A DNA stretch of 64,000 nucleotides from Dictyostelium discoideum (taxonomy: Eukaryota), in contig CM000154.2 in assembly GCA_000004695.1 (NCBI GenBank), positions 2,592,001-2,656,000 on the forward strand. The letters are read 5' to 3'. Shown piece after piece: positions 14,298 through 15,638 of the stretch; the first letter of the stretch is position 1; every line of letters starts with the position of its first letter. Both the position numbers and the translations under genes were made by a program. The notes under the pieces were generated by a model. It made no database searches. It had not been told where the DNA came from and saw nothing but the letters and a program-made list of their open reading frames with translations.

Positions 14298-14565
14298 TTT
14301 AGCATTAAATTGTTCCTCCTCTTCTTGAGTTTTCTTTATCTTTTCTCTATTTTCTCTTTATCTTGTTGATACTCTTTTTTATAATTTTCATTACTTTCAA
14401 TTGAAATCGCTTCCTCAATTGATTTTAAAGCATCATCTAATAGACATAAATCTCTTTTACCACGGGAATGTCTAAAATAAATCTTTGAAATTATTTTTAT
14501 AATTTCCTCTCTTATCAATTGAAATACCTTTTTCACTATTTTCAGCAAAAACAGATTGTTATTTT

Positions 14566-14688
14566 ATTTCTATTTTCATTTCTATTTCTATTTTTTTTAT
14601 TTTTTTATTATTTTTTTTACAATATGATTAATAACGAATACAATGAAAAAAAGGAAAACCTTTTTTGGATGGTATTTCAATAACTCCT
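14566..14688 (+). repeat. Dispersed duplicate of the promoter, 5'UTR and first 20 codons of the 8672 gene
   Basis: The segment 'tttcatttctatttctatttttttt...ttttttacaatatgattaataacgaatacaatgaaaaaaaggaaaaccttttttggatggtatttca' aligns with 8621..8740 at about 90% identity. Similarity stops abruptly at 14688. Confidence 0.6.
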
Positions 14689-15075
14689 TCACCTGTAAAA
14701 CTCCATCTTTACCAGGTACTGTTGTATAAATTACCCCATCAGGAGAACATCCAATTCTTTTGTCACCTGGCAATGGAAAGATACCTTTTTCGATAATTGA
14801 AGTCTCCAACTCATTAAAATAAAATTCTCTTGCTATTGGTTCTTGGCTTTTACCATGTTCCATTGCCTTTTTACAGTAGTCACTAAAGAATGGTGTTTTC
14901 TTTTTAGCCAATATTAATTTTAAATCATGTTGTGAAGTGTATGGATCAATTCCAATGGCAGCAGCTAATCTACTTCCAGTTAAAGAATACTTCTCTCTTG
15001 CTTTTTCCCATTTTTTAGTTCCTTGTACCAAATCTTCATCGATACATCGGTTTTGTATGGAGTTGTATTTTTACA
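14689..15075 (-). pseudogene. YqaJ-like (lambda-exonuclease-type PD-(D/E)XK) exonuclease domain fragment, truncated at both ends
   Basis: 'VQGTKKWEKAREKYSLTGSRLAAAIGIDPYTSQHDLKLILAKKKTPFFSDYCKKAMEHGKSQEPIAREFYFNELETSIIEKGIFPLPGDKRIGCSPDGVIY...DGVLQVKE' matches the YqaJ pattern. The upstream frame is closed by a stop at about 15075. The C-terminus runs into the duplicated fragment at 14688. Confidence 0.55.
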
Positions 15076-15541
15076 AACTGCTAATGATTTGAAAATCATA
15101 AACAATCAAACCTATTCAAATTGTCTAACGTTTTACTATCAAATGATTTCGAATATTAATTTCGAAAATGCTGAAGTAACCATATTAAAAGTCATACCAC
15201 CCAAAGATAGGTGTATGGAACAAATTAACCAAAGAGGTAGAACCTTTGAAGTCGGTAGTTTATCTATAGACTATGTTTCCAAATTAACCGATAAAATTCG
15301 ATCTCATTGTGTTAGCCAAGTTTTATCAAGACTTGAAAAACCAATAAAATGCTGTATCGATAGAGAATACAAAAGCAATGATGACCTGTTCAATGACATT
15401 TTCTTTAATGAAAATCCAAACTCAATTCCCACACCATCAAATACTCCAACTCAATCTCTTCAAAGTTCACACTCAAATCTTAGTTTTTATTACCCATCGA
15501 ATCAAGAGCAATATTTTAATATTCAAGATTATTTGAATTAA
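15023..15541 (+). pseudogene. Deoxynucleoside kinase (dNK family) C-terminal fragment
   Basis: '...AEVTILKVIPPKDRCMEQINQRGRTFEVGSLSIDYVSKLTDKI...' matches the dNK lid region ([35 protein letters not shown]). No P-loop or ERS/DRY N-terminal half lies upstream, where the opposite strand encodes the YqaJ-like fragment. Confidence 0.45.
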
Positions 15542-15638
15542 TAAAACTAAATTCTAAATAATACTATAAAAAAAAAAATAAAAAAAAAAATAAAAAAATA
15601 AAAATATATTTAAATTAAATAAAAAAAAGAAAAAAAAA

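Follow-up and report, generated by a model that had tools for sequence, protein, structure and literature searches.

Remains of a multi-copy, probably virus-derived gene block with YqaJ exonuclease and deoxynucleoside kinase fragments in Dictyostelium discoideum

Gene fragments at the locus

The window considered here is a stretch of 64,000 nucleotides of Dictyostelium discoideum DNA (chromosome 5, contig CM000154.2, positions 2,592,001 to 2,656,000), and coordinates given without a locus name are positions within it; related loci are numbered L001 to L011. On the minus strand, positions 14674-15045 hold a pseudogene fragment of a YqaJ/lambda exonuclease that corresponds to about codons 12-136 of a 270-codon open reading frame (ORF). 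The minus-strand ORF at 14597-15031 matches the Pfam YqaJ profile (PF09588; E 6.5e-26; 91.8 bits, cut-off 22) over profile positions 1-114 of 150, and 14674-15045 shares 97.6% DNA identity (blastn) with 7844-8216 of L001, where an intact YqaJ paralogue lies. In strain AX4 the fragment is annotated as Q54HQ6 (XP_636305.2), an 'exonuclease, phage-type/RecB, C-terminal domain-containing protein'. No in-frame ATG is present upstream of the domain in the window ORF, a stop stands 17 codons before 'QG', and the AX4 gene model (P0002) takes in an out-of-frame exon. In the protein alignment the catalytic Asp (in SPDG) is retained. The E-I-K motif, which reads E(I/V)KCP in the intact YqaJ proteins of L001, L009 and L010, is cut after E-I at the end of the fragment, with a frameshift just upstream, and the catalytic Lys and all that follows it are gone. 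An earlier note on this DNA, made from the sequence alone, had described a minus-strand YqaJ domain lacking both ends, and this reading is borne out. Having lost both its start codon and its catalytic Lys, the window YqaJ is a family member by descent and cannot act as an enzyme.

On the plus strand, positions 15041-15541 encode the C-terminal 166 codons (codons 98-263) of a deoxynucleoside kinase (dNK), with the QRGRTFE motif and the C-terminal tail kept. The match of the plus-strand ORF at 15023-15541 to the Pfam dNK profile (PF01712) is weak (E 1.8e-4 and 21.7 bits, where the cut-off is 27; profile positions 80-165 of 203), but the fragment is 92% identical in DNA (blastn) to L001 10292-10792. 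These positions are the 3' portion of the gene for a complete 263-aa dNK, and the full-length paralogue P0013 reaches 45.2 bits against the same cut-off. The earlier note's assignment of this region to the lid and C-terminal part of a dNK therefore stands, and the profile searches that it proposed place YqaJ above the Pfam cut-off in the fragment itself and dNK above it in the full-length paralogue. R-G-R-x-x-E, which we take to be the Arg-rich lid, is invariant across the aligned dNK proteins of the window, P0013, L009 and L010. The P-loop (GxxGxGKT, found as GPIGAGKTT in intact copies) was deleted along with the rest of codons 1-97, so that the relic has kept no enzymatic capacity and is a family member by descent only. 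Both fragments are pseudogene remains, as had been proposed. The reported overlap of about 50 bp between them exists for the open reading frames; as homology it does not, and the boundaries share just the five bases at 15041-15045.

Next to the YqaJ fragment lies a stump of a decayed paralogue of the Asn-rich gene at 8672 (14575-14679, plus strand), consisting of a T-rich 5' flank and the first 19 codons, which begin with the ATG at 14624. It is 88% identical to 8622-8727 (blastn), or 91% over 86 nt in a repeat search within the window. An exact 27-mer containing the ATG was found at 8672 and 14624 alone, with 0 matches expected from shuffles; the unambiguous copy spans about 66 bp, the remainder upstream being T-rich low-complexity sequence. 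A copy of the promoter and first 20 codons of this gene, 120 bp long, had been placed at 14566-14688; the copy is real and its extent is the slightly smaller one given above. A second stump of the same paralogue occupies 18882-19102 (plus strand), where codons 524-597 match 10242-10462 at 88% identity in DNA and 70% in amino acids. It lies 4.2 kb downstream of the first, on the matching strand, in the expected order and with the same 88% identity. What was read as a transplanted promoter is thus better seen as the terminal remnant of a tandem paralogue of gene 8672 that has decayed, and because the two stumps flank the block, a segment of about 4.2 kb would sit within that paralogue.

The remainder of this segment resembles the related loci as well. 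An intact ORF for a 61-aa membrane protein (DDB_G0289295; 15639-15824, plus strand) is the fourth gene of the block and is 96-100% identical in L001, L002, L003, L006 and L011, while homologues with 45-46% identity adjoin dNK in L009 and L010. It is followed by a small Cys-containing protein (DDB_G0295813; 15950-16345, minus strand) of a family found alongside the block within the D. discoideum group, with tblastn matches to families of L003; 15801-16373 is colinear with L006. A recurrent repeat segment at 16551-17360 (minus strand), in which a small coiled-coil ORF (DDB_G0295815; 16428-16757) is located, shares 73-95% identity with stretches of L001-L008. On its right-hand side the colinear block consists of a frameshifted gene for a signal-peptide protein (17390-18784, minus strand) that has 33-37% amino-acid identity to L003 16007-17383 and a weak GIY-YIG-like motif (Pfam E 0.044). 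The GC content of the window is 21-31% per 2-kb bin and does not shift at the block. The locus is situated between a SET/MYND gene and cupC. The description of the area as a pseudogene graveyard fits these surroundings, given the 8672-like fragment at 18882-19102 and a fragment of an SNF2 Helicase_C domain at 19990-20290. Elsewhere in the window, a run of N near 27700 marks an assembly gap.

Junctions and lesions

Three lesions mark the window copy, namely a deletion of 2,075 bp, a frameshift of 1 bp within YqaJ and the truncation of the YqaJ 3' end. The truncation (junction A, 14674-14679) coincides with a 6-bp microhomology, ATTTCA, that is common to the 8672-like stump and the YqaJ fragment in a three-way alignment of the window, gene 8672 and L001. 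The large deletion (junction B, 15041-15045) falls at a 5-bp microhomology, GATAC, located by blastn coordinates and by the three-way alignment. It removed the equivalent of L001 8217-10291, and with it the 5' end of YqaJ, an entire PrimPol-type primase gene and the first 97 codons of dNK. The frameshift is a 1-bp deletion between 14692 and 14693, which accounts for the apparent divergence of the protein after 'VLQ'. The exonuclease ORF had been said to be truncated at 14688; the homology in fact runs on to 14674-14679, and the 1-bp deletion mimics an earlier end. Continuation of the YqaJ ORF through an intron at 'CAG|GTGAAG' was also considered and ruled out, as the paralogue alignment shows a 1-bp deletion and then the junction.

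The arrangement of the two fragments follows from the larger deletion. Since it took the primase together with the 5' ends of the divergent genes on either side, YqaJ and dNK now abut head to head. An inversion was ruled out, both genes being oriented as in the intact copies. The earlier picture of three unrelated pieces joined by rearrangement is not borne out: YqaJ and dNK are adjacent, in these same orientations, in all intact and partial copies compared (L001-L003, L005-L007, L009 and L010), and their contact is a simple internal deletion, neither inversion nor overlap.

Intact block and its copies

In D. cf. discoideum and D. dimigraforme the intact block consists of YqaJ (minus), a PrimPol-type archaeo-eukaryotic primase (minus), dNK (plus) and the 61-aa membrane protein (plus). 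In L001, from D. cf. discoideum, this order and orientation are seen with complete ORFs, YqaJ having 270 aa, the protein between 398 aa and dNK 263 aa. There YqaJ scores 128 bits against Pfam over the whole profile (1-150 of 150), dNK scores 45.2 bits, and a profile built from the 398-aa protein finds human PrimPol (PDB 5l2x) with an E-value of 1.6e-13. A D5-type SF3 helicase lies beside the block in this copy (DUF5906, 49.8 bits, and PHROG primase/helicase matches). Some gene models in related loci are spliced, as in a 317-residue YqaJ product against the 270-codon ORF. Word-based searches of 5.8 billion proteins returned 12 YqaJ and 21 dNK proteins, all of them from D. discoideum, D. cf. discoideum or D. 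dimigraforme.

Partial copies (L002, L004-L008 and L011) lie in differing genomic contexts and have independent breakpoints, frameshifts and transposon insertions. The possibility that L011 (P0014) is orthologous to the window locus in D. cf. discoideum was considered and rejected; L011 is another independent decayed copy, with Harbinger-type transposase genes. Wherever it occurs in the D. discoideum group, the block is interspersed with families of secreted proteins and of small Cys-containing proteins that are undergoing expansion. When L001 and L003 were each compared with themselves, neither terminal inverted repeats nor long inverted repeats came to light.

More distant copies were found on two contigs. 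Among 1.84 billion representatives, the nearest relatives of YqaJ are encoded on a 58-kb contig of D. cf. discoideum (JBTAPH010000006.1; 51% identity) and a 25.8-kb contig of Acytostelium subglobosum (DF837621.1; 46%), beyond which identity falls to 38% or less, the level of the nearest non-dictyostelid homologues. Both contigs keep the gene order membrane protein, dNK, primase, YqaJ. L010, from Acytostelium, encodes a Pox_A32 packaging ATPase at 12826-14136 (39.1 bits, cut-off 22.8), and an ATPase relic with 54% identity adjoins YqaJ in the D. discoideum locus L004. L009 5159-6373 matches Pox_VLTF3 just under the 25-bit cut-off (E 1e-4, 22.5 bits).

Further assignments in L010 are more tentative. 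The ORF at 16408-16941 has a weak Gemini_AL1 match (E 0.048) and HUH-like motifs (FLLTVN, HSHAVIEV and YIEK) read by eye. That at 17455-18027, which starts 'ISIDPGTVNLGY', looks RuvC-like by eye only and has no Pfam or PDB sequence match. A candidate capsid gene at 3316-4566 (416 aa), a relic of which adjoins YqaJ in L002, likewise matched nothing in Pfam or among PDB sequences; its C-terminal 'YCWSLEP...SGSCPLS' resembles what we take to be a giant-virus capsid motif. Scans of IMG/VR with the primase, with the helicase and with an alignment of packaging ATPases returned no relatives.

Comparison with known viruses and mobile elements

The Mriyaviricetes, which include Yaravirus brasiliensis and the Pleurochrysis endemic viruses, are small relatives of giant viruses with genomes of 35-45 kb (PMC11253617). 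Of their conserved core, the dictyostelid loci share a PD-(D/E)XK or YqaJ-type nuclease, an A32-type ATPase and an SF3 helicase, all above Pfam cut-offs (PMC11253617). Candidate VLTF3-like, small HUH-like and RuvC-like proteins, for which the dictyostelid matches are weak or by eye, may add to this overlap. The dictyostelid DNA sampled likewise showed neither a DNA nor an RNA polymerase. Unlike them, the dictyostelid loci encode a PrimPol-type primase, a dNK and a GRF zinc-ribbon protein, which are absent from the conserved proteins of Table 1 in that paper (PMC11253617), and the elements are integrated and multi-copy, with most copies in the D. discoideum group decayed and the capsid gene a candidate only. 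The mriyavirus nuclease is also probably not orthologous to the YqaJ of giant viruses (PMC11253617). According to the Yaravirus paper, the best database match of Yaravirus gene 28 is a protein of A. subglobosum; from a numbering offset in the mriyavirus paper (PMC11253617), we infer that gene 28 is the HUH endonuclease.

Other systems offer partial parallels. Giant or large endogenous elements of Nucleocytoviricota in protist genomes, such as those of Acanthamoeba and Euglena, are likewise virus-derived blocks eroded by deletions, duplications and transposon insertions, whereas the dictyostelid blocks are much smaller (about 26 kb in the most complete contig) and neither DNA polymerase B nor RNA polymerase subunits were found in them. 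Polintons/Mavericks and polinton-like viruses (15-40 kb) are also integrated and multi-copy with an A32/FtsK-type packaging ATPase, and GIY-YIG-like genes, to which the weak motif at 17390-18784 may be compared, are common in them. However, the protein-primed polymerase, integrase and adenain-type protease of Polintons/Mavericks were not found in the dictyostelid loci: no Polinton-type genes occur among the ORFs scanned from L001, L009 and L010, and the gene tables of all loci (14-21 kb sampled per locus) contain no polymerase or integrase domain bar one unrelated retrotransposon. The VLTF3-like gene, a match below cut-off, would point to Nucleocytoviricota instead. YqaJ itself resembles the phage YqaJ, lambda-Exo and RecE exonucleases, the intact copy scoring 128 bits in Pfam, 70 bits against NCBIfam TIGR03033 and E 7e-20 against a PHROG RecE-like exonuclease. 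The dictyostelid setting differs from these phage systems in its eukaryotic host, in that no partner single-strand annealing protein was identified and in an identity of 38% or less to the nearest non-dictyostelid homologues.

Origin of the block

Taken together, we consider it probable that the locus is what remains, without function, of a virus-derived gene block that is present in multiple copies in the D. discoideum species group. A decayed viral or mobile-DNA integrant was among the possibilities raised earlier, and it is the best-supported reading, given a block in many copies and an A32-type ATPase in related loci. Sequence comparison directly shows three steps of decay: an internal deletion of 2,075 bp at a 5-bp microhomology, a 1-bp frameshift in YqaJ, and a truncation of YqaJ, whose 3' end is missing beyond the point where 6 bp of microhomology connect the fragment to the beginning of a paralogue of the neighbouring Asn-rich gene. 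The block of about 4.2 kb (14674 to about 18880) would lie inside this 8672 paralogue, which was probably a tandem duplicate, and would replace about 1.5 kb of it; its capture or joining probably occurred by microhomology-mediated end joining or template switching rather than by a transposase. The ancestor would have been a small double-stranded DNA virus with a packaging ATPase of the poxvirus A32 type that integrated into dictyostelid genomes, and in the living virus YqaJ, primase, SF3 helicase and dNK would serve genome replication, recombination and dNTP supply. The gene set resembles those of Yaravirus and the mriyaviruses, from which we infer a link to these viruses, and the source virus may be related to giant viruses.

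An alternative that needs neither a virus nor a mobile element is a long-established cluster of cellular genes, possibly of horizontal origin, that was amplified by segmental duplication in rearrangement-prone regions rich in gene families, with the window copy as one decayed duplicate. The even GC content across the block, the spliced gene models, the copies lying amid host-like expanding families (signal-peptide proteins, small Cys proteins and cup genes) and the missing terminal repeats and integrase, with a capsid gene that is a candidate only, would all agree with this. Such a cluster would nevertheless have to accommodate an A32-type packaging ATPase in the same neighbourhood, and we know of no role for this enzyme outside virion packaging. 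The near-threshold VLTF3 match (22.5 bits, cut-off 25), a gene order shared by three lineages whose YqaJ proteins have just 45-51% identity, two of these lineages being represented by separate small contigs, and the restriction of the D. discoideum-type genes to the D. discoideum group in the word-based searches of 5.8 billion proteins also argue against it, and we regard it as improbable.

Less probable still is a transposon origin, in which the block would be part of a large Polinton/Maverick-type DNA transposon able to replicate itself, or of some other DNA transposon, with the window fragment as a dead copy. The block is dispersed and multi-copy, Harbinger-type DDE genes adjoin one copy (L011), and Polintons have been reported in other dictyostelids, namely Dictyostelium fasciculatum and Polysphondylium pallidum. 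Yet in the 11 loci neither a protein-primed B-family polymerase nor a retroviral-type integrase nor terminal inverted repeats were seen, the replication genes being a PrimPol-type primase and an SF3 helicase instead; the DDE genes of L011 break into the block without belonging to it, and the window junctions show microhomology with no target-site duplications. As for an assembly or sequencing artefact from which intact genes could be recovered by error correction, the gap near 27700 shows that the assembly is imperfect elsewhere in the window, but both junctions and the frameshift recur identically in P0001 (ACTFIT_000984), translated across the junctions, which comes from an independent assembly of another D. 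discoideum strain. The junctions are therefore not assembly errors, and the 2,075 bp of missing DNA lie beyond any error of base calling, which leaves this explanation with next to no credibility; correcting sequence errors, which the earlier note held could undo its reading, would restore no intact genes here.

Significance

Within the preferred reading, a relic of a virus-derived block, the two clean microhomology junctions record how Dictyostelium wears down such insertions. The AX4 annotation calls for correction as well, since neither Q54HQ6 nor the adjoining dNK-like ORF is a gene; both are pseudogene stumps left from a single deleted block. The missing viruses of Dictyostelium are a long-standing oddity for a soil phagotroph that is also a major model organism. 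To our knowledge, no virus of Dictyostelium or of the social amoebae has been described, and in a literature search that took in the lesser part of the subscription-journal papers we found no description of such elements in Dictyostelia.

Together with the copies that wild isolates and Acytostelium have kept in better condition, the relics provide concrete sequences with which dictyostelids can be tested as past or present hosts of small giant-virus relatives. The A32 ATPase, the candidate capsid gene, primase, helicase, YqaJ and dNK are all usable here, and they enable a search for episomal or expressed copies. Reading frames are fully open in L001, in the 58-kb D. cf. discoideum contig and in the 25.8-kb Acytostelium contig, and these copies could be recent or even able to replicate. 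It is conceivable, if rather doubtful, that dictyostelids, including wild relatives of D. discoideum, harbour an undescribed lineage of small, mriyavirus-like viruses related to Nucleocytoviricota, which would use a PrimPol-type primase, an SF3 helicase, YqaJ and a dNK of its own. If such a lineage with replicating copies does exist, its members would be the first candidate viruses of Dictyostelia.

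Two gene remnants and an internal deletion

The window ORFs DDB_G0289295, DDB_G0295813, DDB_G0295815 and cupC (a calcium up-regulated protein gene) were matched to the 5,125,352-bp AX4 record by exact-sequence look-up; the window belongs to chromosome 5 of D. discoideum AX4. GC content in the window is 15-31%, and in a eukaryotic window of this kind introns and pseudogenes have to be allowed for when ORF lists are interpreted. Earlier inspection of the sequence had pointed to a YqaJ-type exonuclease fragment, a deoxynucleoside kinase (dNK) fragment and a copy of the 5' end of gene 8672, the Asn-rich family gene starting at that position, and all three proved to be real. 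Pfam YqaJ matches the ORF at 14597-15031 (-) with an E-value of 6.5e-26, over profile positions 1-114 of 150 only. The dNK match, to the ORF at 15023-15541 (+), is weak (E 1.8e-4; 21.7 bits vs. a 27-bit cut-off), covers only positions 80-165 of 203 and leaves out the P-loop, which is absent from the fragment.

Both remnants have counterparts in L001, a D. cf. discoideum locus with an intact copy. By blastn, window positions 14674-15045 correspond to L001 7844-8216 (97.6% identity) and 15041-15827 to L001 10292-11102 (92%), and the window therefore lacks L001 8217-10291. These 2,075 bp hold the first ~11 YqaJ codons, the entire primase gene and dNK codons 1-97, and a GATAC at 15041-15045 is common to both sides of the deletion junction. 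The two fragments lie on the same strands in the window as in L001. What had been described as a ~50-bp overlap of unrelated pieces is only a chance extension of reading frames over the GATAC junction, and YqaJ and dNK are neighbours in L001, in L003 of D. dimigraforme and in partial copies. At its other end, the YqaJ homology stops at 14674-14679, where an ATTTCA belongs equally to the 8672-like sequence. An assembly artefact was ruled out, as P0001 (ACTFIT_000984), a gene model from an independent D. discoideum assembly, is translated through both junctions.

Translation of the window YqaJ diverges from its paralogues past 'GVLQ' because of a 1-bp deletion between 14692 and 14693. With the frame corrected, 'GVLQ' is followed by 'EGVIEI', and the junction removes the Lys of the catalytic E-I-K; the fragment has no in-frame ATG. 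Both fragments are pseudogenes, notwithstanding the AX4 annotation of the YqaJ piece as protein Q54HQ6. Directly left of these remnants and the 8672-like copy lies a SET-domain gene with a MYND-like Cys cluster (12715-14297 (-), possibly to 14548; Pfam SET, 28.3 bits). Upstream of it, a 70-aa ORF at 14336-14548 has no match anywhere, and the P0001 model splices it to the YqaJ stump.

A probable decayed paralogue of gene 8672

At 14575-14679 the window repeats the start of gene 8672, from its 5' flank through codon 19, with 88-91% identity, and an ATG-containing 27-mer is found at two sites only, the gene 8672 start and this copy, with none expected by chance. The earlier note had called it a transplanted promoter; it is indeed a copy of the gene start, but is better seen as the left stump of a decayed paralogue. 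The probable right stump is a 221-bp fragment at 18882-19102 (+), 88% identical to 10242-10462 (codons 524-597). The stumps share strand and divergence and stand in the right order, and the simplest reading of these sequences would be a single decayed paralogue, probably a tandem duplicate of gene 8672, with ~1.5 kb of its interior apparently exchanged for the block.

Other copies of the block align colinearly with the 4.2-kb stretch between the stumps. Besides the YqaJ and dNK remains, this stretch carries a 61-aa ORF and genes for a small Cys-containing protein, for a small coiled-coil protein (within a recurrent repeat segment, 16551-17360) and, in frameshifted form, for a signal-peptide protein (17390-18784 (-)). 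The GIY-YIG-like motif of the last is weak (Pfam E 0.044), and its C-terminal repeats are rich in Gly, Ala and Asn; it is one of a diverged family whose members flank the block in many loci of the D. discoideum group.

The idea of a pseudogene graveyard also fits this neighbourhood, with more debris rightward, including a C-terminal fragment of an SNF2-type helicase at 19990-20290 (+) (Pfam Helicase_C, 26.1 bits; in-frame stop). A polyQ-coding scrap lies at 19739-19876. Duplicated families are abundant in the window: cupC (20450-22759 (-)) has 1.5 kb away a 109-aa ORF (24286-24615 (-)) resembling, by eye, the C-terminal end of a cup-family gene, and a further Asn-rich member at 25615-28711 (-), 25-43% identical in amino acids to the 8672 protein, is broken by an N run near 27700 (assembly gap).

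The block in related Dictyostelium loci

Protein searches returned 12 YqaJ and 21 dNK proteins, all from Dictyostelium (D. discoideum strains, D. cf. discoideum and D. dimigraforme). Most of these gene models are fragmentary, and by locus tag the two kinds are often a few genes apart. L001, found through an intact 263-aa dNK, carries a full YqaJ (7438-8435, -), a 398-aa protein (8490-9686, -), the dNK (10001-10792, +) and a 61-aa membrane-protein ORF (10914-11096, +). Profile comparison links the 398-aa protein to human PrimPol (PDB 5l2x; E 1.6e-13), and the expected D-x-D and S-x-H motifs are present. Left of YqaJ are a D5-type SF3 helicase (DUF5906, 49.8 bits; PHROG 'DNA primase' matches near 1e-14), a GRF zinc-ribbon protein and several proteins without known function. 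The gene order recurs in L003 and, at other genomic sites, in partial, frameshifted or transposon-interrupted copies (L002, L005-L007, L011). At least one further AX4 copy is on an unplaced 9,512-bp contig, where the dNK (P0027, DDB_G0294238) keeps its N-terminal P-loop half in a model fused to the 61-aa membrane ORF. In the decayed D. cf. discoideum copy L011, the primase and dNK are flanked and separated by transposase genes of the Harbinger type (DDE_Tnp_4; 215-2748 and 6226-7164), and an LTR-type reverse transcriptase adjoins the copies in L006 and L007.

Distant relatives and the probable source of the block

An exhaustive HMMER search with a YqaJ paralogue, run against 1.84 billion representative proteins, placed the closest relatives outside the family on two contigs, one of 58 kb from D. 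cf. discoideum (51% identity) and one of 25.8 kb from Acytostelium subglobosum (46%); further ones, at most 38% identical, were among metagenomic 'phage-type endonucleases'. On both, the genes follow one another as membrane protein, dNK, primase, YqaJ, and both have homologues of two function-unknown L001 proteins. Further genes of the Acytostelium contig include one for a packaging ATPase of the poxvirus A32 type (39.1 bits vs. a cut-off of 22.8) and one for a 177-aa protein with HUH-endonuclease-like motifs, for which the Pfam E-value is only 0.048. Neither its RuvC-like-looking protein nor its 416-aa capsid candidate has database support; the capsid protein is the defining character for mriyavirus membership. 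A VLTF3-like protein on the 58-kb contig falls just under the Pfam cut-off (22.5 vs. 25 bits). Within the D. discoideum group, L004 has a degraded remnant of the ATPase gene beside YqaJ, and L002 has one of the capsid candidate in the corresponding place.

A purely cellular gene cluster, spread through segmental duplication, would accord with the lack of a GC shift at the block in the window, with spliced gene models in some related loci and with the fact that no element ends are defined. Yet we consider it quite improbable, as it leaves unexplained both the packaging ATPase and a synteny kept across lineages only 45-51% identical in YqaJ. An origin from a Polinton-type transposon is also unlikely, since the loci scanned showed neither a protein-primed polymerase nor an integrase nor terminal inverted repeats. 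The conserved core of mriyaviruses comprises a nuclease, a packaging ATPase, an SF3 helicase, VLTF3, HUH and RuvC (PMC11253617). The dictyostelid gene set resembles this core, with no polymerase seen, although the counterparts of HUH, RuvC and VLTF3 are weak candidates. Yaravirus is described as having few genes with any database match, one of which finds its best match in A. subglobosum. Because of this match and the resemblance in gene set, the source of the block was most likely a virus of the general mriyavirus kind, likened by gene set and not by capsid protein.

Meaning of the window locus

Polintons have been reported from other dictyostelids and endogenous mriyavirus-like regions from algae; our literature search found no paper on the present elements in Dictyostelia. 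Taken alone, the window locus is an ordinary dead relic; what makes it useful is that it points to a family of elements, apparently undescribed and probably derived from a virus, in the model organism D. discoideum, for which, to our knowledge, no virus has been described.
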